64,000 nucleotides of DNA from Escherichia coli (lineage in GTDB: Bacteria > Pseudomonadota > Gammaproteobacteria > Enterobacterales > Enterobacteriaceae), in NCBI RefSeq assembly GCF_001677475.2, contig NZ_CP015229.1; one strand, written 5' to 3'. The notes beneath the pieces were generated by a model, which saw nothing but the letters and a program-made list of their open reading frames with translations, made no database searches and was not told the origin of the DNA. Of this stretch, positions 1,625 to 29,440 are shown in pieces; position 1 is the first letter of the stretch, and each line of letters begins with the position of its first letter. The position numbers and the translations under genes are program-made.

Positions 1625-3213
1625 AACGAACGCCTGTCCTGATTGATGTGAACGGTGTTCCGCTTCGTGAGAGTCTCAGCTACAACGGGGGCGGCGCAGG
1701 ATTTGGCGGGCAAATGGCGGAGTGGTTGCCACCGGCGCAGAGTGCCGATGCGGCCCTGCTGCCCGCGTTGCGTCTGGGGAATGCCCGGGCAGATGATCTG
1801 GTGCGCAATAACGGAATAGCGGCTAATGCGGTTGCCCTGCATAAGGATCACATTGTCGGGCATATGTTTCTGATCAGCTACCGTCCGAACTGGCGCTGGC
1901 TGGGGATGCGGGAGACCGCAGCAAAAAGCTTTGTCGATGAGGTGGAGGCGTCCTGGTCGGAATACGCCGAAGGGATGTTTGGCGAGATCGACGTGGAAGG
2001 AAAACGCACGTTCACGGAATTTATCCGTGAAGGTGTGGGCGTTCATGCGTTTAACGGCGAAATCTTTGTGCAGCCGGTCTGGGATACGGAAACCACGCAG
2101 TTATTCCGTACGCGTTTTAAAGCTGTGAGTCCGAAACGGGTGGACACGCCTGGACACGGTATGGGGAACCGTTTTCTGCGGGCCGGTGTGGAGGTCGATC
2201 GATATGGCCGTGCCGTCGCGTACCATATCTGTGAGGATGATTTTCCGTTCTCTGGTAGTGGACGATGGGAACGGATCCCGCGTGAACTTCCCACCGGGCG
2301 TCCGGCCATGCTGCATATTTTCGAGCCGGTGGAGGACGGGCAGACCCGTGGGGCTAATCAGTTTTACAGCGTCATGGAACGGCTGAAGATGCTCGATTCC
2401 CTGCAGGCAACACAGCTTCAGTCGGCCATAGTGAAGGCGATGTATGCAGCGACGATTGAAAGTGAACTTGATACCGAAAAGGCCTTTGAATATATCGCCG
2501 GCGCGCCACAGGAGCAGAAGGATAATCCGCTTATTAATATTCTGGAGAAGTTCTCCAGCTGGTATGACACGAATAACGTGACACTGGGCGGAGTCAAAAT
2601 TCCGCACCTTTTCCCTGGTGATGATCTGAAACTACAGACTGCGCAGGATTCAGACAATGGATTTTCTGCACTTGAACAGGCGCTGCTGCGGTATATCGCC
2701 GCCGGTCTTGGCGTTTCCTACGAACAGTTGTCCCGTGATTACTCGAAGGTCAGTTACTCAAGTGCCCGCGCCTCCGCCAATGAGTCGTGGCGCTATTTTA
2801 TGGGGCGGCGAAAATTTATTGCGGCCCGGCTGGCCACGCAGATGTTTTCCTGCTGGCTGGAAGAGGCACTTCTTCGGGGGATTATTCGTCCGCCACGGGC
2901 ACGTTTTGATTTTTATCAGGCGCGATCAGCCTGGTCACGGGCAGAGTGGATTGGTGCCGGAAGAATGGCCATTGACGGGCTCAAGGAAGTCCAGGAATCA
3001 GTGATGCGCATTGAGGCCGGACTGAGCACGTATGAGAAAGAGCTGGCGCTAATGGGCGAGGATTATCAGGACATTTTCCGCCAGCAGGTCAGGGAATCTG
3101 CAGAGCGGCAAAAAGCCGGACTCTCACGTCCGGTGTGGATATCGCAGGCGTATCAGCAGCAGATAGCGGAGAGTCGCAGGCCGGAAGAGGAGACAACACC
3201 ACGTGAGACGTAA
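1621..3213 (+). CDS. Portal protein (lambda gpB-like)
   Basis: 530 aa ORF, ATGA overlap with the preceding gene, lambda B position and size. Confidence 0.9.
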   Translation: MKRTPVLIDVNGVPLRESLSYNGGGAGFGGQMAEWLPPAQSADAALLPALRLGNARADDLVRNNGIAANAVALHKDHIVGHMFLISYRPNWRWLGMRETAAKSFVDEVEASWSEYAEGMFGEIDVEGKRTFTEFIREGVGVHAFNGEIFVQPVWDTETTQLFRTRFKAVSPKRVDTPGHGMGNRFLRAGVEVDRYGRAVAYHICEDDFPFSGSGRWERIPRELPTGRPAMLHIFEPVEDGQTRGANQFYSVMERLKMLDSLQATQLQSAIVKAMYAATIESELDTEKAFEYIAGAPQEQKDNPLINILEKFSSWYDTNNVTLGGVKIPHLFPGDDLKLQTAQDSDNGFSALEQALLRYIAAGLGVSYEQLSRDYSKVSYSSARASANESWRYFMGRRKFIAARLATQMFSCWLEEALLRGIIRPPRARFDFYQARSAWSRAEWIGAGRMAIDGLKEVQESVMRIEAGLSTYEKELALMGEDYQDIFRQQVRESAERQKAGLSRPVWISQAYQQQIAESRRPEEETTPRET

Positions 3214-4708
3214 TCTTTCACACATTATTGCCGCAGCATTCAATGAACCGCTGCTTCTGGAGCCCGCCTATGCGCGGGTTTTCTTTTGCGCGCTCGGGCG
3301 CGAGATGGGGGCAGCAAGTCTTTCGGTACCACAACAACAGGTACAGCTTGATGCTCCCGGAATGCTGGCTGAAACGGACGAGTATATGGCCGGAGGTAAA
3401 CGACCGGCCCGTGTTTACCGGGTGGTGAACGGTATTGCTGTACTGCCGGTGACCGGCACGCTGGTGCACCGGCTGGGTGGTATGCGGCCATTTTCCGGAA
3501 TGACAGGCTATGACGGCATTGTCGCCTGTCTTCAGCAGGCAATGGCGGATAGCCAGGTGCGGGGCGTACTGCTGGACATTGACAGTCCGGGCGGGCAGGC
3601 CGCCGGCGCGTTTGACTGCGCTGACATGATTTACCGCCTCCGTCAGCAGAAGCCGGTCTGGGCACTGTGCAATGACACGGCCTGTTCTGCAGCCATGCTG
3701 CTGGCGTCGGCCTGCTCCCGACGGCTGGTTACCCAGACATCCCGTATCGGCTCCATTGGCGTGATGATGAGCCATGTCAGCTATGCCGGTCATCTGGCGC
3801 AGGCCGGTGTGGATATCACGCTGATTTACTCAGGGGCGCACAAGGTGGATGGCAATCAGTTTGAAGCGTTGCCGGCAGAGGTTCGCCAGGACATGCAGCA
3901 GCGGATTGATGCGGCGCGCCGGATGTTTGCCGAAAAAGTGGCGATGTATACCGGTCTGTCTGTTGATGCCATCACGGGAACAGAGGCTGCCGTTTTTGAA
4001 GGTCAGTCCGGCATTGAGGCCGGGCTGGCGGATGAATTAATCAATGCGTCGGATGCCATCAGTGTGATGGCCACGGCGCTGAACAGTAATGTCAGAGGAG
4101 GCACTATGCCGCAATTAACTGCAACGGAAGCCGCCGCGCAGGAGAACCAGCGAGTGATGGGGAGCCTGACATGCCAGGAAGCGAAAGGACGTGAACAGCT
4201 TGCCACGATGCTGGCAGGACAACAGGGCATGAGCGTTGAACAGGCCCGGGCGATTCTGGCCGCGGCGGCACCGCAGCAGCCGGTGGCATCCACGCAGAGT
4301 GAAGCCGATCGCATTATGGCGTGTGAAGAAGCGAACGGTCGTGAACAACTGGCGGCAACGCTGGCGGCGATGCCGGAGATGACGGTGGAAAAAGCCCGCC
4401 CGATCCTGGCTGCTTCACCGCAGGCGGATGCCGGACCATCACTCCGTGATCAGATCATGGCACTGGATGAGGCAAAAGGGGCTGAGGCGCAGGCTGAACA
4501 GCTGGCTGCCTGCCCGGGAATGACAGTGGAGAGCGCCCGGGCTGTGCTGGCTGCGGGATCAGGTAAGGCAGAACCGGTCTCTGCATCCACAACCGCCATG
4601 TTTGAACATTTCATGGCGAACCATTCACCGGCAGCGGTACAGGGTGGCGTGGCACAGACGTCAGCAGACGGTGATGCGGACGTGAAAATGCTCATGGCCA
4701 TGCCATGA
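3203..4708 (+). CDS. Capsid assembly protease C with nested scaffold (Nu3-like) C-terminal region; S49/ClpP-like peptidase
   Basis: 501 aa; N-terminal half has S49 protease-like motifs (DSPGG, SAA), C-terminal half is Ala/Gln-rich scaffold-like with three tandem repeats. Confidence 0.85.
   Translation: MRRNLSHIIAAAFNEPLLLEPAYARVFFCALGREMGAASLSVPQQQVQLDAPGMLAETDEYMAGGKRPARVYRVVNGIAVLPVTGTLVHRLGGMRPFSGMTGYDGIVACLQQAMADSQVRGVLLDIDSPGGQAAGAFDCADMIYRLRQQKPVWALCNDTACSAAMLLASACSRRLVTQTSRIGSIGVMMSHVSYAGHLAQAGVDITLIYSGAHKVDGNQFEALPAEVRQDMQQRIDAARRMFAEKVAMYTGLSVDAITGTEAAVFEGQSGIEAGLADELINASDAISVMATALNSNVRGGTMPQLTATEAAAQENQRVMGSLTCQEAKGREQLATMLAGQQGMSVEQARAILAAAAPQQPVASTQSEADRIMACEEANGREQLAATLAAMPEMTVEKARPILAASPQADAGPSLRDQIMALDEAKGAEAQAEQLAACPGMTVESARAVLAAGSGKAEPVSASTTAMFEHFMANHSPAAVQGGVAQTSADGDADVKMLMAMP
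4165..4555. repeat. Three tandem ~40-45 codon in-frame repeats inside the C/Nu3 scaffold region
   Basis: Repeated peptide unit (QEAKGREQLATMLA...VEQARAILAA / EEANGREQLAATLA...VEKARPILAA / DEAKGAEAQAEQLA...VESARAVLAA) read in the ORF translation. Confidence 0.5.
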
Positions 4709-21053: not shown

Positions 21054-23993
21054 ATGGCAGTAAAGATTTCAGGTGTACTGAAAGACGGCACAGGAAAACC
21101 GGTACAGAACTGCACAATCCAGCTGAAAGCAAAACGTAACAGCACCACGGTGGTGGTGAACACGCTGGCCTCAGAAAATCCGGATGAAGCCGGGCGTTAT
21201 AGCATGGACGTTGAGTACGGTCAGTACAGCGTTATTCTGTTGGTGGAAGGATGCCCGCCGTCACATGCCGGGACCATCACCGTGTATGAAGATTCCCGAC
21301 CCGGTACGCTGAATGATTTTCTCGGTGCCATGACGGAGGATGATGCCCGTCCGGAGGCTCTGCGCCGTTTTGAACTGATGGTGGAAGAGGTGGCGCGTAA
21401 CGCGTCCGCGGTGGCACAGAACACGGCAGCCGCGAAGAAGTCAGCCGGCGATGCCGGCACATCTGCCCGTGAGGCGGCAACCCATGCGACTGATGCTGCA
21501 GATTCAGCACGTGCAGCCAGCACGTCAGCCGGACAGGCCGCGACGTCAGCTCAGGAGGCTTTTTCCTGCGCAGGAACGGCATCAGCAAAAGCCTCTGAGG
21601 CATCAAAAAGTGCTGCCGCTGCAGAGTCCTCAAAAAGCGCGGCGGCCACCAGTGCCGGTGCCGCGAAAACGTCTGAAACGAATGCTGCAGCGTCACAACA
21701 ATCAGCAGCCACTTCTGCATCCACCGCGACCACGAAAGCGTCAGAAGCTGCCACCTCAGCCCGGGATGCGTCGGCTTCAAAAGAGGCGGCAAAATCATCA
21801 GAAACGAGCGCAGCCTCGAGCGCAAGTAGTTCCGCTTCCTCGGCAACAGCGGCAGCAAATTCTGCGAAGGCGGCAAAAACGTCCGAGACGAACGCCAGGT
21901 CTTCTGAAACGGCAGCGGAACAGAGCGCCTCAGCTGCGGCAGGTTCAGAAACTACCGCTGCATCATCAGCCCGTGAGGCGTCAGTCAAAGCGGAGGAGGC
22001 TGCAGCCAGTGCCACTGCCGCCGGAAAATCGGCAGAAAGCGCCGCATCATCCGCTTCAACAGCCACAACGAAGGCTGGCGAAGCCACTGAACAGGCCAGC
22101 GCAGCAGCGAGGTCAGCTTCCGCAGCGAAGACATCCGAAACGAACGCGAAAGCGTCGGAAACCAGCGCAGAATCCTCAAAAACGGCTGCCGCATCGTCCG
22201 CCAGTTCGGCGGCGTCATCGGCCTCATCGGCGTCTGCTTCAAAAGATGAGGCGACCAGACAAGCGTCAGCAGCGAAGGGCAGCGCCACGACGGCATCCAC
22301 GAAGGCAACAGAGGCTGCTGGCAGTGCGACGGCGGCAGCACAGAGCAAAAGTACGGCGGAATCCGCGGCAACGCGCGCCGAGACAGCGGCAAAACGGGCA
22401 GAGGATATTGCATCCGCCGTGGCGCTTGAGGATGCGAGCACGACGAAAAAGGGGATAGTACAGCTCAGCAGTGCGACCAACAGCACTTCCGAGTCACAGG
22501 CGGCAACGCCAAAGGCAGTAAAAGCAGCCAATGACAATGCTGAGAAACGTCTGCAGAAAGATCAGAACGGTGCGGATATCCCTGGCAAAGACACCTTTAC
22601 GAAAAATATTGGTGCCTGCCGTGCCTTCGGTGGGTCAGTAAGCACAACAACAGGAAACTGGACGACTGCACAGTTTATCGAGTGGCTGGATTCTCAGGGA
22701 GCATTTAACCATCCATACTGGATGTGCAAGGGTTCCTGGTCTTATGGCAATAATAAAATCATTACTGATACTGGCTGCGGTAATATTCATCTCGCCGGAG
22801 CTGTCATTGAAGTAATGGGGATAAAGTCAGCGATGACGATCCGCATTACCACTCCGACTACATCCAGCGGTGGCGGAACAACCAACGCCCAGTTTACCTA
22901 TATTAATCACGGAACAGATTATTCACCTGGCTGGCGAAGGGACTATAACTCCAGAAATAAGCCAACGGCATCAGAGATCGGGGCGCTACCGTCAGGTGGA
23001 ACAGCAGTATCATCAGTTAATCTGGCTTCAAAAGGTCGGGTAGCCGCGCTGACAGACAATACGCAGGGGGCAGCAGGTCTTGAGTTATACGAGGTGTATA
23101 ACAACGGATATCCAACAGCGTATGGAAATATCATTCACCTGAAAGGGATGACAGCCGTTGGCGAAGGTGAGTTACTCATCGGCTGGAGTGGTACAAGCGG
23201 TGCTCATGCTCCGGCATTTATTCGTTCACGACGGGATACGACCGACGCAAACTGGTCGCCGTGGGCGCAGCTTTACACCTCGGCTCATCCTCCTGCAGAG
23301 TTTTATCCAGTCGGTGCACCAATCCCGTGGCCATCAGATACCGTTCCGTCTGGCTATGCCCTGATGCAGGGGCAGACTTTTGACAAATCTGCATACCCGA
23401 AACTTGCAGCGGCTTATCCGTCAGGCGTTATTCCTGATATGCGTGGCTGGACGATTAAGGGCAAGCCCGCCAGTGGTCGTGCCGTATTGTCTCAGGAACA
23501 GGACGGCATTAAATCGCACACCCACAGCGCCAGCGCATCCAGTACGGATTTGGGGACGAAAACCACATCGTCGTTTGATTACGGCACTAAATCCACGAAT
23601 AACACCGGTGCGCATACCCATAGTTTAAGTGGCAGCACGAATGCGGCTGGTAATCACAGCCATAGAGATGGCCGTCGATTTAACCCCAGTGTTTTTAAAG
23701 ATACTTATCAATATGGTTATACAAGCTCAGGTCAAAATACCTGGGGGGTACAAGGCTCAGTAGGTATGTCTACGGGGTGGTTAGCTAATACCAGTACAGA
23801 TGGTAATCATAGCCACTCACTGTCCGGTACAGCAGTATCTGCAGGTGCACACGCGCATACTGTCGGTATTGGTGCTCATACGCACTCCGTTGCGATAGGG
23901 TCACATGGACACACCATCACCGTTAACGCTGCTGGTAACGCGGAAAACACCGTCAAAAACATCGCATTTAACTATATTGTGAGGCTTGCATGA
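21054..23993 (+). CDS. stf: Side tail fibre protein Stf-like
   Basis: 979 aa; N-terminus matches the lambda Stf N-terminal domain; long Ala/Ser/Thr-rich repeat shaft; C-terminal His-x-His repeats. Confidence 0.9.
21380..22450. repeat. Low-complexity Ala/Ser/Thr/Glu-rich repeat region inside stf
   Basis: Roughly 350 codons of degenerate SAA/TSE/AAK repeats; GC-rich and free of stops in several frames. Confidence 0.6.
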
Positions 23994-24892
23994 TTACGCT
24001 CATTCTTTCTGCACCAGTAACAGAAATGGCTGAAGCATTTAAGCGGGTATTCGCAAATGCAGATAATGTGAATATTGTCGGAAAGCCATTTGAAACAATC
24101 AGGGAATTTGACTGCATGGTAAGTGCGGCAAACAGTTTCGGCCTGATGGATGGCGGTGTTGATGCCGCCATTACCGCATTCTTCGGTACTCAGTTACAGT
24201 CCCGCGTTCAGAATCATATTCTTCGTGAATATCTCGGCGAGCAGCCTGTAGGTTCTGCATTTGTTATTGAAACGGGGCATAATCATCATCCCTGGCTGGT
24301 ACATGCGCCAACAATGCGTGTTCCGCTGACAATTGACGGAACAGACGCTGTATATAACGCAACCTGGGCCGCTCTGCTTGCCATCTTTCAGCACAATAAA
24401 CACGCAACGACAGACAGGAAAATAAAAACGGTGGTATTCCCTGCAATGGGAGCCGGATGTGGTCAGGTGCCGTTTGAAAGTGTTGCCCGGCAGATGAAGC
24501 AGGCATGGGATAACTTTAATAAAAAAACAGAATCAATTAACTGGGAATACGCACAATCCCGCCAGTCGGCAGTATTTGGCACATATGCATACTGTCCGGG
24601 TAATTCTGTTTGCCGTTATGCGGATACTAAATATATTGGATGCGGCGATTATCGGACGTATTGCTCACGTTCCGGGCAGGTCTGTATTAACCCTGAACAT
24701 CAGGCTGATGATGTACTGATACAACATCAGGCTAATAACCGGTTTCGCCCTGGTTCGCATATACACCGGATTAATCCAGAAAATCCCGTAGGTAATGTCA
24801 TCTCTGGCGCACATAGCCACGGAAGTAGCATCGTTATTGGTGCTCACACCCATACGCTCAATAAACAATATTCTGTCTCTGATATTAAGTAG
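23990..24892 (+). CDS. Protein with macrodomain-like N-terminus (putative ADP-ribose binding/hydrolase) and Cys/His-rich fibre-tip-like C-terminus
   Basis: 300 aa; start overlaps the stf stop (ATGA); motifs [18 protein letters not shown] and [12 protein letters not shown] resemble the two macrodomain signature blocks; C-terminal GSHIH, GAHSHG, GAHTHT repeats. Confidence 0.6.
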
Positions 24893-25476: not shown

Positions 25477-25573
25477 GGTAAAACATATAAATTCTATAAT
25501 TAGATGTATCTTTCCATTTACGGCAAGGAAGGGGGCTTGGAAGACGTAAAGCATCTCACACCGAGATTATTTT

Positions 25574-26164
25574 TTATATGTCAGGTGTCTGAAGTTTTGC
25601 TTTGGCTCTTAAAATGGTTTGCCGCGAGGTTTTGAATTCCCGGGCAATGGCACTTATACTTACACCTGACTTAATTCGTTCGAATACCACCTGTTTCTGT
25701 TCTTCATTTAACACAGGTGGTCGACCAAAACGTTTCCCTGCGCCCCGGGCTCTTACTATCCCGGAATGAGTGCGTTCAAGTAAAAGGTCTCGTTCAAATT
25801 CAGCGACTGCTGAAATTACTTGCATCATCATTTTTCCTGTTGGACTGGTCAGGTCAATGCCCCCCAATGCTAAGCAATGCACTCTGATACCTGTTTCGGT
25901 CAGTTGTTCCACTGTTTTCCTGATATCCATTGCATTACAACCAAGGCGATCCAGTTTTGTCACAATCAATTGATCACCACATTTCAGGCGAGCAAGCAAC
26001 CGGTTAAAACCAGGACGCTCACTGGTTGCTGCTGAGCCGCTAATGTGTTCTTCGATTATTTGCTGAGGTTTGATTTTAAAACCTGCACTTTCGATTTCCC
26101 GGCGTTGATTTTCGGGGGTCTGATCCAGCGTTGATATCCGACAGTAAGCAAAAATTCGAGACAT
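25574..26164 (-). CDS. Small serine recombinase (resolvase/invertase family)
   Basis: 196 aa; N-terminal catalytic block YCRISTLDQ (Ser nucleophile), [11 protein letters not shown]-terminal HTH. Confidence 0.85.
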
Positions 26165-26543
26165 AGTGAGACTCTATACGAAATTGGTGTACATATCATA
26201 ATGCATATCCAAAAATTATTTCGCTTATTATTGTACATATTTGTATGTATACGTTCGAAAATAAACGAATTCGGATGCAGTCCCGTAATTTTGGTGTAAC
26301 CAAAAATCGATTTTTTGAAAAATGGCTTTAACTCGGTTTGTTTTTCGAACTCCGGGCGGACTCGAGGAAGACGAATAATAGTGTTGTATGTTATTTTAAC
26401 CAGATTTTAAGTTGTTTGGTCGTGGAAAAGTGGAGCAAAATGTTGTTAAAGTGGAAAAATGGTAAAAAAAGTAGGTTGTTGCGGAATAACGTAGTTGTTG
26501 ATATTTTTTTAATGCATTGAAAAATTATTTTTCAGGGGGGGTA

Positions 26544-26810
26544 TTACACTTTACCATTTAAATTTTGGTTGTCTTTAAGAACTGATATCGCTGTTTGTAA
26601 TAATTCTTTGTTATCCAGCCATGACTTTTTCTTTATGTTTCCTTCAATGTAATCAAGCAATGTTCTGGTATTGATAGGTCTTCCCTGTTTTGCTACTTCC
26701 ACGACAGCATCTCCCAGGATAATTCTGACTTCAGGAAGCTGCGCAGGGAACCACTTTAGGGTGTCTTTTGATTTCATGAAGATATTCCTTAAAATATTAT
26801 TGGTTTTCAT
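26544..26810 (-). CDS. Hypothetical protein in AT-rich prophage accessory region
   Basis: 88 aa ORF, the only ORF of 60 aa or more in a ~1.2 kb AT-rich stretch; no family recognised. Confidence 0.4.
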   Translation of the reverse strand: MKTNNILRNIFMKSKDTLKWFPAQLPEVRIILGDAVVEVAKQGRPINTRTLLDYIEGNIKKKSWLDNKELLQTAISVLKDNQNLNGKV

Positions 26811-27385
26811 TGCAATATTGTATGTCTGATTCAGGATATGTTGACTTATACATCGGTTTTGTCCGGGTTATTGGATATGCCAATCCCTAATTTTATTAGA
26901 GCATGACCAAAAATGCTGAATATGATAAGTAGTGAAGTGATTATCAGTATGCTGTTCATATAGCCTCGAATTAGTATGGTGTTATATATAATATAGTTGA
27001 CAATTTTTATCCTGGGTGTTCTTAAAGTTCGTAGATGAACCCTGTAGTTTCAGGTATACAGGAATGCTTACAGATAGCGGCAAAAGTCAGGAGGTTAATG
27101 GCGCAAACTGAAGGGGTAGCTGCGAACTAACTTAGGTAGAGACTCTACACGGATTCGGTTTAAAAGTATACATAGATAACAATTTTTATCTGAAGAAGAA
27201 AAATATTAAGGTGATATGGTCATATATACTTTAATGCGGAAGAATGAATGTGATGAGAGTGCTGTATCTGAATGGTTGAAAAACCGCAGACACGTCGTAT
27301 GCAAGAACGTGCTGCGGTTGGCTGGTGAACTTCCGATAGTGCGAGTATTGAATGATTTCCAGCCGTTACCGATTTTACGTGTTAA

Positions 27386-27634
27386 TTAGTGAACAAACCA
27401 CTCGTCAGCAGACTCCCAGGTATCTTTCAGAGTTTCCTGAACAAAAGTTTTAGCTGAATCTTTATCGGCGGTGCGCGTAACAGAAAGGCCATCGTTGCTG
27501 GTGGCTTTTACGATCACCTCTACATCGTCATAACGCTTACTGATGCGTCGAGTTAATTCTTCCTTTAACGCATCCACAGCACCGTTTGGCATTTTAGTCA
27601 TTTTCTCTTTGGCTATGCAGATCTCAATACGCAT
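27386..27634 (-). CDS. DinI-family protein (prophage-encoded DinI-like)
   Basis: 82 aa; MRIE..IAK...GA.DAL..EL.RRI and C-terminal [10 protein letters not shown] match the DinI family. Confidence 0.85.
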
Positions 27635-27647
27635 AAAAATCCCTCTA

Positions 27648-27695
27648 CACTGTGTTTGTATACAGTGTTATTTTTAACTGTATGAATAAACAGTG
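27648..27695 (-). promoter_or_regulatory. Two tandem LexA (SOS) boxes upstream of the dinI-like gene
   Basis: cACTGTgtttgtatACAGTg (27648-27667) and aaCTGTatgaataaACAGtg (27676-27695); both fit CTGT-N8-ACAG. Confidence 0.6.
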
Positions 27696-27853
27696 TCAAT
27701 AGAACAAAGATTGCTGCATGTACAAATGTTCTTTGGCTACAAATACACCTACTGATCATGTTCTGCTATGCTCTGATACCTCCAAAATGTACAATCAGCG
27801 GCATGAATTTTTCTTTGTACATATGATTGTACATAATCAAAGAGACAACAATT

Positions 27854-29440
27854 ATGACAAGCCTTTTGGCCGCAGAGGTAGCGAAAAGAAGAACCTTTGC
27901 AATTATTTCTCACCCGGACGCCGGTAAAACAACCATCACCGAGAAGGTGCTGCTGTTCGGACAGGCCATTCAGACCGCCGGTACAGTAAAAGGCCGTGGC
28001 TCTAACCAGCACGCTAAGTCGGACTGGATGGAGATGGAAAAGCAGCGTGGGATCTCCATTACCACGTCTGTGATGCAGTTTCCGTATCACGACTGCCTGG
28101 TTAACCTGCTCGACACCCCGGGGCACGAAGACTTCTCGGAAGATACCTATCGTACTCTGACGGCGGTGGACTGCTGCCTGATGGTTATCGACGCTGCAAA
28201 AGGTGTTGAAGATCGTACCCGCAAGCTGATGGAAGTTACCCGTCTGCGCGACACGCCGATCCTCACCTTTATGAACAAACTTGACCGTGATATCCGCGAC
28301 CCGATGGAGCTGCTCGATGAAGTTGAGAACGAGCTGAAAATCGGCTGTGCACCGATCACCTGGCCGATTGGCTGCGGCAAGCTGTTTAAAGGCGTTTACC
28401 ACCTTTATAAAGATGAAACCTATCTTTATCAGAGCGGTAAAGGCCACACCATTCAGGAAGTCCGCATTGTTAAAGGGCTGAATAACCCGGATCTCGATGC
28501 TGCGGTTGGTGAAGATCTGGCGCAGCAGCTGCGTGACGAACTGGAACTGGTGAAAGGCGCGTCTAACGAGTTCGACAAAGAGCTGTTCCTTGCGGGCGAA
28601 ATCACTCCGGTATTCTTCGGTACTGCGCTGGGTAACTTCGGCGTTGATCATATGCTGGATGGCCTGGTGGAGTGGGCCCCTGCGCCGATGCCGCGTCAGA
28701 CTGATACCCGTACCGTAGAGGCGAGCGAAGACAAATTTACCGGCTTCGTATTTAAAATTCAGGCCAACATGGACCCGAAACACCGCGACCGCGTGGCGTT
28801 TATGCGTGTGGTGTCCGGTAAATATGAAAAAGGCATGAAGCTGCGCCAGGTGCGTACTGCGAAAGATGTGGTGATCTCCGACGCGCTGACCTTTATGGCG
28901 GGTGACCGTTCGCACGTTGAAGAAGCGTATCCTGGCGATATCCTCGGCCTGCACAACCACGGCACCATTCAGATCGGCGACACCTTTACCCAGGGTGAGA
29001 TGATGAAGTTCACCGGTATTCCGAACTTCGCGCCAGAACTGTTCCGTCGTATCCGCCTGAAAGATCCGCTGAAGCAAAAACAGCTGCTTAAAGGGCTGGT
29101 ACAGCTTTCCGAAGAGGGCGCGGTGCAGGTGTTCCGTCCGATCTCCAACAACGATCTGATCGTTGGTGCGGTTGGTGTGCTGCAGTTTGATGTGGTGGTA
29201 GCGCGTCTGAAGAGCGAATACAACGTTGAAGCAGTGTATGAGTCAGTCAACGTTGCCACTGCCCGCTGGGTAGAATGTGCGGACGCGAAGAAATTCGAAG
29301 AGTTCAAGCGTAAGAACGAAAGCCAACTGGCGCTTGATGGCGGCGATAACCTCGCTTACATCGCTACCAGCATGGTCAATCTGCGCCTGGCGCAGGAACG
29401 TTATCCGGACGTTCAGTTCCACCAGACCCGCGAGCATTAA
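27854..29440 (+). CDS. prfC: Peptide chain release factor 3
   Basis: GTPase motifs [24 protein letters not shown]; full-length collinear RF3; start at the ATG at 27854 inside ORF 27827..29440. Confidence 0.95.

Follow-up and report, generated by a model that had tools for sequence, protein, structure and literature searches.

The stretch from about 25477 to 27915 of the Escherichia coli DNA analysed here (64 kb of contig NZ_CP015229.1, referred to as the window) would be the right-arm accessory block of a lambda-like prophage integrated in the 5' end of prfC. Its pinR/pinQ-type serine recombinase gene, taken in an original prediction from the sequence to be an orphan invertase, reads instead as the resolvase of a fossil transposon of the Tn3 family. 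In our explanation this mosaic block consists of four known units that are independent of one another and are all read on the minus strand: a fossil mini-Tn3 that contains the recombinase, the gene pair ynaM-ydfK, a dinI-like gene and the P arm of attR. We give this explanation as a whole a probability of about 0.75. The module is already known and named, and nearly all of its features are known from E. coli K-12; what is new is the rereading of the recombinase as a fossil mini-Tn3 resolvase and not as a Gin/Cin/Pin-type invertase minus its fibre segment.

On identical DNA, RefSeq annotates a recombinase (pinR/pinQ), the cold shock protein YdfK, a YnaM/YnfT family protein, a DinI-like family protein and prfC. 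The right ends of the K-12 prophages Rac (tfaR-pinR-ynaE-ynaM) and Qin (tfaQ-pinQ-ydfK-ynfT) have the genes of the module in the same order and orientation, and share with the window the inverted-repeat and res remnants, the cysteine at position 76 of the recombinase and the AGGAA flanks described below. Positions 25477-27325 are about 88-100% identical, by segment, to the Rac right end (pinR, ynaE/ydfK, ynaM), whose counterpart runs from the tfaR stop codon through pinR, ynaE and ynaM to about 370 bp upstream of ynaM. Identity to Rac is 100% for the tfa-pin spacer, 99.3% for the pin coding sequence, 87.6% for the res-like stretch just upstream of pin, 97% for ydfK (ynaE in Rac) and 96.5% for ynaM. 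In the window the module is followed by the dinI-like gene and by attR in prfC, whereas the Rac and Qin modules end at ttcC or ydfJ, and a 60-bp indel 3' of ydfK separates the window from K-12 Rac.

A megablast query of positions 25477-27826 against 5,426 complete E. coli genomes gave partial matches in 5,397 of them and near-full-length matches in 147; the pin element alone was found at a coverage of at least 80% in 2731. Sequenced phages have the module too, among them 2H10 (98.9%) and several PhiR phages with ECOR13 as their recorded host. Phage lambda matches the block only at tfa, and the earlier view of this stretch as the counterpart of the lambda b region holds in the sense that the accessory block replaces it. 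The comparison with homologous prophages that had been suggested (Rac, Qin, a diverged copy from avian pathogenic E. coli, hereafter APEC, the prophage L010 and phage 2H10) returned a known module.

A probable resolvase gene and the presumed remains of its transposon

As had been predicted, the window encodes a 196-amino-acid (aa) serine recombinase on the minus strand, and the protein matches the Pfam families Resolvase (8.5e-36) and HTH_7 (8.6e-11). Its assignment to the Gin/Cin/Pin lineage did not stand: the protein is 84% identical to a TnpR encoded beside a Tn3-family transposase and 37% identical to PinE of e14, and its DNA-binding domain has almost no identity to that of PinE and is close to those of TnpR proteins. 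Among solved structures, phmmer gave Gin (1.9e-28) and gamma-delta resolvase (4.4e-22), both as distant matches, and PHROGs places the protein in phrog_125, 'DNA invertase'. A protein search returned thousands of homologues, those that are 73-84% identical being plasmid-borne "recombinase family proteins". Among these relatives are the Tn3-family TnpR proteins of Y. pestis pJARS35 (73%) and E. coli pOkiPb01706_1 (84%), with a conserved helix-turn-helix domain, whose tnpR genes are divergent from a Tn3-family transposase gene with about 160 bp between them (159-160 bp between tnpA and tnpR in the loci L005 and L008). This divergent tnpA-res-tnpR layout is the classical Tn3 arrangement. From these comparisons the recombinase appears to be a transposon resolvase by descent, and with such a descent no lost fibre segment needs explaining.

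Gin of Mu, Cin of P1, Pin of e14 and Hin share with the window protein the small serine recombinase fold, the C-terminal helix-turn-helix and a place beside tail-fibre genes, and the window gene bears the 'Pin' name as well. Unlike these Din invertases, the window gene has neither an adjacent invertible segment nor 26-bp crossover sites, and it points towards tfa in convergent orientation, not away from a segment. Across the 64 kb there were 0 matches to the Din-type crossover site AAACCNNGGTTT at up to 1 mismatch, and 0 to the e14 pix 16-mer at up to 3 mismatches. The absence of opposite-strand stf or tfa copies from the table of open reading frames (ORFs), and that of an invertible fibre segment, had both been noted correctly, and our analysis of the block found no invertible segment, crossover site or structural variant.

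By its sequence, the recombinase lies in an 834-bp fossil, non-autonomous mini-Tn3 (25526-26369, including the AGGAA flanks). Its parts would be, in order, a terminal inverted repeat, tnpR, a three-subsite res, a tnpA tail of about 47 bp and a second inverted repeat (Table 1), and an ancestor of the Rac/Qin-type prophages would have received it between tfa and ydfK. In a complete transposon the canonical 38-bp repeat, GGGGTCCGCTTGGAAAACGGAAAATATCCCACGCTAAG, abuts the tnpR stop codon; the left repeat of the window (IR_L) aligns with it and occupies the same place beside tnpR as in the plasmid transposons L008 and L003. When both strands of the 64 kb were scanned with two reference repeats (background mean 9.5, standard deviation 2.7), the two best 38-mers were IR_L (25/38) and the right repeat, IR_R (26/38, against the res-side repeat of L003), in inverted orientation.

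Upstream of pin, the DNA can be aligned column for column with the three dyad res subsites of the relatives. Subsite III aligns with TGTACACCCATTTCGTACAGA upstream of plasmid tnpR genes (relatives' sequence TGTACACCCATTTCGTACA), subsite II with TATCCGAAAGTCAGCGAAATTACTTTCGGACA in L003, and subsite I with TGTCCGAAATCGACCGGTTTCGGACA in L003 and TGTCCGAAACCGGTCATTTTCGGTCA in L008. The half-sites of subsites I and II match the TGTCCGAAA consensus at only 6-7 of 9 positions (6/9 and 7/9 for the two halves of subsite II), and the relatives' -10-like hexamer TATAAT, located between subsites II and III, has TATGAT as its counterpart in the window. The TGTACATAT-type motifs at the recombinase start, predicted to be protein-binding or recombination sites together with similar motifs upstream of prfC, are by this alignment half-sites of the decayed res subsites II and III; the prediction thus held for the motifs near the recombinase, whereas those at prfC are a separate thing. 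Beyond subsite I, the remnant of tnpA aligns with the tnpA-distal end of a complete transposon (L011) and with the plasmid mini-element L003; the ORF table of the window contains no tnpA, of which only about 47 bp of the 3' end are left.

The AGGAA direct repeat that encloses the element is suggestive only of a target-site duplication; Tn3-family elements make 5-bp target duplications. Both of its copies persist in Rac and in the diverged APEC copy. The same insertion with the same flanks is found in a lineage whose nucleotide sequence has diverged by 10% and in which it takes the Qin position.

A plasmid counterpart of the fossil, L003, has the same repeat-res-tnpR-repeat layout with canonical repeats, Arg76 and no transposase, and this shared layout suggests that the mini-element is a recurrent internal-deletion derivative. 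The L003 element (2786-3637, E. coli plasmid pRHB17-C09_2) is 852 bp long and has an intact res, and elements of this type are present at a coverage of at least 80% in 142 plasmids. It is without matching 5-bp flanks and adds no evidence for mobility. Other non-autonomous Tn3 derivatives, the TIMEs and the mobile insertion cassettes, have Tn3-family repeats, no transposase and 5-bp flanking repeats. The window element is unlike them in having tnpR and res, in appearing fixed and in having repeats diverged to about 65-70% of the reference, and it differs from complete Tn3 transposons in the missing transposase, the change of Arg71 to Cys and the degenerate subsites I and II and -10 hexamer. Each prophage holds a single copy, so there is no partner site for resolution. 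With subsites I and II decayed and no second res in cis, no local switch would be possible; the recombinase may still bind the intact subsite III and the remnants of subsite II over its own promoter and repress itself as TnpR does, and its strand-exchange activity would be strongly reduced.

The other units of the block

Table 1. Positions of the features of the accessory block within the window.
Feature	Position	Strand	Basis or remark
AGGAA left copy, target-site-duplication-like	25526..25530		pentamer match to 26365-26369
IR_L, remnant of 38-bp Tn3-family terminal inverted repeat	25531..25568	+	just past recombinase stop
pinR/pinQ-type small serine recombinase, apparently TnpR-derived, 196 aa	25574-26164	minus	ORF table; Pfam; identity to Rac and TnpR
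res subsite III-like dyad (TGTACACCAATTTCGTATAGAG on minus), nearest the gene, nearly intact	26172..26193	minus	alignment
res subsite II-like dyad, degenerate, holds one TGTACATAT motif	26203..26240	minus	alignment
res subsite I-like dyad, degenerate, presumed former crossover site	26251..26278	minus	alignment
tnpA 3'-end remnant, about 47 bp	26279..26325	minus	three-way alignment with L011 and L003
IR_R, Tn3-family inverted repeat remnant, inverted relative to IR_L	26326..26364	minus	match to L003
AGGAA right copy	26365..26369		abuts outer end of IR_R
GTGGAAAAGTGG / GTGGAAAAATGG pair, 3' flank of ydfK	26422..26462		present, conserved
88-aa ORF	26544-26810	minus	ORF table
ydfK/ynaE, cold-shock-induced 77-aa protein	26544..26777	minus	RefSeq annotation
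ynaM/ynfT, 37-aa hydrophobic small protein	26846..26959	minus	NCBIfam NF041477
putative promoter and ~200-nt leader of ynaM-ydfK, with both 12-bp repeat copies	26960..27194	minus	sigma-70-like site
dinI-like gene, 82 aa	27386..27634	minus	ORF table; RefSeq 'DinI-like family protein'
two perfect LexA-box matches, CTGT-N8-ACAG	27650-27665, 27678-27693		overlap predicted dinI-like promoter
four TGTACA(T/A)A motifs in P arm of attR, including the motif at 27819-27839	27719..27833	+	likeness to 2H10 attP
prfC, with phage-supplied promoter and first ~16 codons	27854..29440	+	annotation; K-12 comparison
att core ATTATTTCTCACCC, prophage right end, inside prfC	27902..27915		window, 2H10 attP, K-12 prfC

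The G+C content falls to 0.32-0.41 over about 26150-27350, with flanks of about 0.5, as the prediction of an AT-rich stretch had it; horizontally acquired moron DNA usually has such low values. Only one ORF of 60 aa or more had been claimed there, of 88 aa and without a family. Two further 60-aa ORFs exist mechanically in the stretch, the 37-aa ynaM had been missed, and the 88-aa ORF turned out to be YdfK/YnaE, which is annotated with 77 aa and belongs to a narrow, enterobacterial family (PF27475, phrog_2718). The protein matches phrog_2718 at 2.8e-47, and PF27475 (YnaE) is precomputed on 92 of 94 homologues; our own Pfam scan, made with a copy of Pfam that is without PF27475, gave no match. 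The top homologue clusters, with 96-97% protein identity, are named 'cold shock protein YdfK'. In K-12, YdfK and YnaE are known from cold-shock transcripts and were detected at about 8.75 kDa by top-down mass spectrometry after refrigeration (PMC5594050), a mass that fits the 77-aa form. The AlphaFold model of YdfK (predicted local distance difference test score, pLDDT, 78) is a small helical bundle, and its only notable match in the Protein Data Bank (PDB) by Foldseek is the small helical regulator YmgB/AriR (2oxl; template-modelling (TM) scores 0.68/0.83, root-mean-square deviation 1.8 A, E 0.069). The two small helical bundles superpose over 59 columns (TM 0.83 when normalised to the target) at 15% identity, and we regard this likeness of fold as a lead only.

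The ynaM product scores 59.9 bits against NF041477 (cut-off 35), and the K-12 YnaM protein was verified by epitope tagging (PMC6001520). Upstream of it, on the minus strand, there is a sigma-70-like site, TTCAGA-18-TATACT, at 27194..27165. The 12-bp repeat ACAATTTTTATC that had been pointed out at 27000-27011 and 27179-27190 has its second copy within the spacer of this site and its first copy about 40 nt upstream of the ynaM start, and both copies, with the promoter block, are invariant in four lineages. On sequence grounds, the best reading of this DNA is the promoter and leader of a ynaM-ydfK unit, which would have a conserved promoter block, a leader of about 200 nt and induction of both genes by cold shock. 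A structured leader or RNA thermosensor upstream of ynaM found no support in the form of excess folding (z = -0.03), and no link between ydfK and a csp untranslated region was found in a literature search. A deletion between the 12-bp copies had been envisaged; the best 12 genome matches inspected contained no deletion junction, all of them being two-piece matches with undeleted 379-bp spans.

The short repeats listed in the original prediction are all present but are not individually beyond chance. The repeat search found 33 comparable direct-repeat families in 8 kb, and inverted repeats in this part of the window are short and no more than chance would give. For TGTACA, 11 occurrences in the window compare with 13.5 expected, although 6 of the 11 cluster within 1.65 kb here (26188, 26232, 27719, 27788, 27816 and 27828). 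The pair formed by GTGGAAAAGTGG (26422-26433) and GTGGAAAAATGG (26451-26462) has the same sequence in Rac, L010 and the diverged APEC copy, is conserved no better than its surroundings, and no structural variation was seen at it. No tRNA genes were found, an RNA family scan of the AT-rich DNA gave nothing above threshold, its one match being CssrB with 24 bits (gathering score 76), and none of the five proteins matched a PADLOC defence model.

Two side observations concern this DNA. The pin leader with subsite III (26168-26191, GAGACTCTATACGAAATTGGTGTA) and the start of the ynaM-ydfK leader (27139-27162, GAGACTCTACACGGATTCGGTTTA) share 19 of 24 bases. An operator common to pin and ynaM was considered and set aside as chance, since by our own estimate about 10 such similarities are expected in 8 kb; in the APEC lineage, where the pin leader still has the ancestral GAAGATCTC, the two sequences are less alike. 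The similarity would gain importance should PinR turn out to regulate by binding DNA. The 60-bp stretch 3' of ydfK (26481-26541), which holds the AT-rich palindrome TGAAAAATTATTTTTCA, is lacking in both K-12 Rac and the diverged APEC copy and occurs in L010, the other prfC prophage.

The dinI-like gene is located where it had been predicted. Its product matches phrog_189 (RecA filament binding protein DinI) at 4.4e-31 and NF007893 with 72.5 bits (3e-20), below the equivalog cut-off of 111, which makes it a phage paralogue and not the chromosomal dinI. CTGT-N8-ACAG occurs 3 times in the 64 kb against 0.76 expected; two of the three precede this gene and overlap a promoter-like TTGACA-18-AAAAAT (27699..27670, minus). 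The arrangement of an 82-aa DinI-family protein with two perfect boxes over its predicted promoter is that of the DinI/LexA regulon, so that the gene would be expected to be SOS-induced.

At the prophage end, the window, phage 2H10 attP and K-12 prfC share the same att core, ATTATTTCTCACCC. K-12 prfC and the window diverge upstream of the core (the prfC N-terminus of the window, 27854-27915, differs from that of K-12), while 2H10 attP matches the window up to the core and diverges after it. This divergence on opposite sides indicates that the 5' end of prfC is the integration site and that the gene receives a new promoter and N-terminus from the phage. Motifs of the TGTACATA type are located on both arms of 2H10 attP, and the tandem TTGTACATATG-N-TTGTACATAATG recurs in its P' arm, beside int; K-12 attB has no TGTACA(T/A)A motifs. 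By analogy, the TGTACATA and TTGTACATA repeats before prfC are probably integrase arm-type sites, and the likeness of the prfC-side TGTACATA motifs to res half-sites is best taken as coincidence.

A lost catalytic arginine and the possible functions of PinR/PinQ

Position 76 of the window protein aligns with Arg71 of the gamma-delta and Tn3 resolvases and with the matching Arg of Gin; where Gin and PinE carry Arg, the window protein has Cys. Codon 76 is TGT (Cys) in the window, Rac, the diverged APEC copy and phage 2H10, and CGT (Arg) in every transposon relative. Arg occupies this position in 115 of 120 homologue cluster representatives and Cys in 5, all of them from abundant E. coli prophage clusters with about 3,950 member sequences. 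In Tn3 resolvase the substitutions R71A and R71K left no detectable recombination and at least 1000-fold slower strand cleavage, with site I still bound (PMC2794168). Against the Tn3 catalytic set (Y6, R8, S10, D36, R68, R71), the window protein has Y7, R9, S11, E39 (also found in its relatives) and R73, with Cys76 as the equivalent of R71; the helix-turn-helix domain and all other residues of the catalytic set are kept. The ratio of nonsynonymous to synonymous substitution rates (dN/dS) is 0.33-0.38 between two diverged Cys lineages, against 0.04-0.10 among TnpR genes, and constraint on the prophage gene is relaxed but not absent.

Arg-bearing variants with 86-92% identity were considered as ancestral prophage forms and rejected, the one examined (P0008 in L010, 86% identical) being a chimera, a recombinant with a plasmid-type 5' patch. 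In L010 (2615-3700; GCA_910593615.1, same prfC prophage context) the proximal res, the TATAAT hexamer, the 5' part of the gene and Arg76 are of the plasmid TnpR type, and the remainder of pin is identical to that of the window. This chimera implies that exchange between plasmid tnpR and prophage pin still occurs.

On this basis we tentatively propose, at somewhat under even odds, that PinR/PinQ is an exapted resolvase, which lost its catalytic Arg early in the prophage and has since been kept mainly as a sequence-specific DNA-binding protein. Such a protein would not carry out strand exchange itself; it could repress itself at the res remnants, or could modulate or partner a true invertase such as PinE, and the P-segment inversion reported for PinQ could then be indirect.

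That inversion is the core of the published view, which takes PinQ/PinR for an active invertase of the e14 P segment, working in trans as the operator of an anti-phage switch whose target lies outside the window. Kirigo et al. (PMC12529663) found by quantitative PCR that the P segment was 88% inverted when PinQ was overproduced, against 30% in the wild type, and 49% inverted with overproduced PinE; inversion of this 1797-bp segment makes a chimeric StfE2 and blocks adsorption of phage T2, the T2 survivors that overproduce PinQ carry the inversion, the effect is abolished by deleting stfP, stfE or e14, and T2 infection raises pinQ/pinR transcripts 14-fold. The same paper reports that PinR and PinQ are 99% identical to each other. 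The earlier statement that the target of the recombinase is unknown is therefore partly out of date: in the published sense this trans action answers it, and it agrees with the absence of a local switch in our analysis. We nevertheless consider direct inversion by PinQ rather doubtful. All PinQ overproduction strains listed in the paper are pinE+ backgrounds, and a freely reversible invertase should approach about 50:50, as PinE does at 49%, so that bias or selection seems to lie behind the 88%. In Tn3 resolvase, recombination is abolished by loss of the residue that Cys76 replaces, and this change together with the paper's own delta-pinE result makes direct catalysis by PinQ questionable. The DNA-binding domain resembles that of TnpR proteins, which have TGTCCGAAA sites, and has almost no identity to PinE, while pix reads TTCTCCCAAACC, and no pix-like site is present in the 64 kb; with Cys76 and the resolvase ancestry, this domain makes direct catalysis by PinQ at pix uncertain. 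An indirect effect of PinQ, through modulation of PinE or through selection, is a live alternative.

A Gin/Cin/Pin-type invertase with a lost or hidden target, with the short repeats as crossover sites of an inversion or deletion switch, or else a silenced moron, was the view that started this analysis. The gene does stand beside tail-fibre genes like gin, cin and pin, PHROGs does file it under 'DNA invertase', and the repeats do exist, but the view is by now largely refuted and we regard it as very improbable. It is opposed by the 37% identity to PinE against 84% to a transposon TnpR, by the convergence of the gene on tfa and by the lack of any hix/gix/pix-like site in the 64 kb. The repeats are otherwise explained as res remnants, promoter DNA and integrase arm sites, the inverted repeats here are short and do not exceed chance, and the best-ranked genomes showed no deletion junction for the 12-bp repeat. 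For a recombinase-controlled switch we found no evidence, and the BLAST survey of Kirigo et al. found inversions in e14 only and none in Rac or Qin (PMC12529663). The opposite extreme, that the gene and its sites are decaying transposon junk, functionless now and hitch-hiking in a widespread prophage module, is unlikely in our judgement, even though it accommodates the lost catalytic Arg, the degenerate subsites I and II, the weakening of the -10 hexamer from TATAAT to TATGAT, the deleted tnpA, the relaxation of dN/dS to about 0.35 and a res region that diverges faster than the coding sequence. Against a pure relic stand the 591-bp ORF, intact in two lineages that differ by a synonymous divergence (dS) of about 0.2, a dN/dS still clearly below 1 and the retention of all other catalytic and DNA-binding residues; about 2,700 complete genomes carry the gene, as do sequenced phages, and delta-pinQ phenotypes have been published (PMC12529663).

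Several points weigh against the mosaic with a fossil resolvase that we prefer. The query for an unoccupied tfa-ydfK junction (pin element removed) matched 0 of the 5426 genomes, and the insertion by transposition is therefore deduced from anatomy alone; taken with the diverged lineage that shares the insertion, the same result indicates that the insertion is old and fixed, with no sign of recent mobility of the pin element. The status of AGGAA as a duplication depends on a 3-nt deletion in IR_L, which starts at 25528 when aligned without a gap, and the dN/dS values come from single sequence pairs. The inversion in trans and the protection against T2 (PMC12529663) argue for catalytic activity. 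Finally, protein binding to the res remnants with self-repression, the transcription start of ynaM-ydfK, LexA/SOS control of the dinI-like gene and integrase binding at the arm-type motifs are features that we infer from sequence and from analogy with known systems.

The tail-fibre neighbourhood and the meaning of the proposed resolvase fossil

The tail-fibre genes to the left of the block offered some observations of their own. Between stf and tfa, and overlapping the stf stop codon, there is a 300-aa ORF (23990-24892, +) whose N-terminal ~180 aa match macro-domain (ADP-ribose-binding) families and whose C-terminus has a tail-fibre-tip-like GAHTH motif, corresponding to a DNA repeat (D13) in common with the 3' end of stf; the protein matches phrog_2613 (unknown function) at 1e-148 and has no PADLOC match. 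The 3' half of tfa contains a full-length match to the Rfam family IS009 (RF02111; 25244-25442, +) with 220.9 bits against a gathering score of 117, and this part of tfa is the conserved stretch that survives as 126 bp in a prophage that has another fibre gene. Several other-frame ORFs of 140-335 aa overlap on both strands at 21400-22540, over the Ala/Ser-rich repeats (G+C about 0.6) of the 979-aa side tail fibre, and look like by-products of repetitive composition, not genes.

It is common practice to take pinR/pinQ genes for orphan Din-type invertases, a reading on which a phage-defence model published in 2025 is based. No paper linking PinR/PinQ to Tn3-family elements was found in the literature searched, which is not proof of absence. 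The value of our analysis is thus corrective, as the repeats, the decayed res, the 84% identity to TnpR and the Cys at a catalytic position point to a fossil Tn3-family resolvase. This reading removes the puzzle of the missing invertible segment, explains why papers on plasmid genomics list plasmid resolvases as "pinR", and casts a testable doubt on the published mechanism. If the tentative proposal of exaptation is true, PinR/PinQ would represent a serine recombinase domesticated into a regulator, in about half of the complete E. coli genomes.

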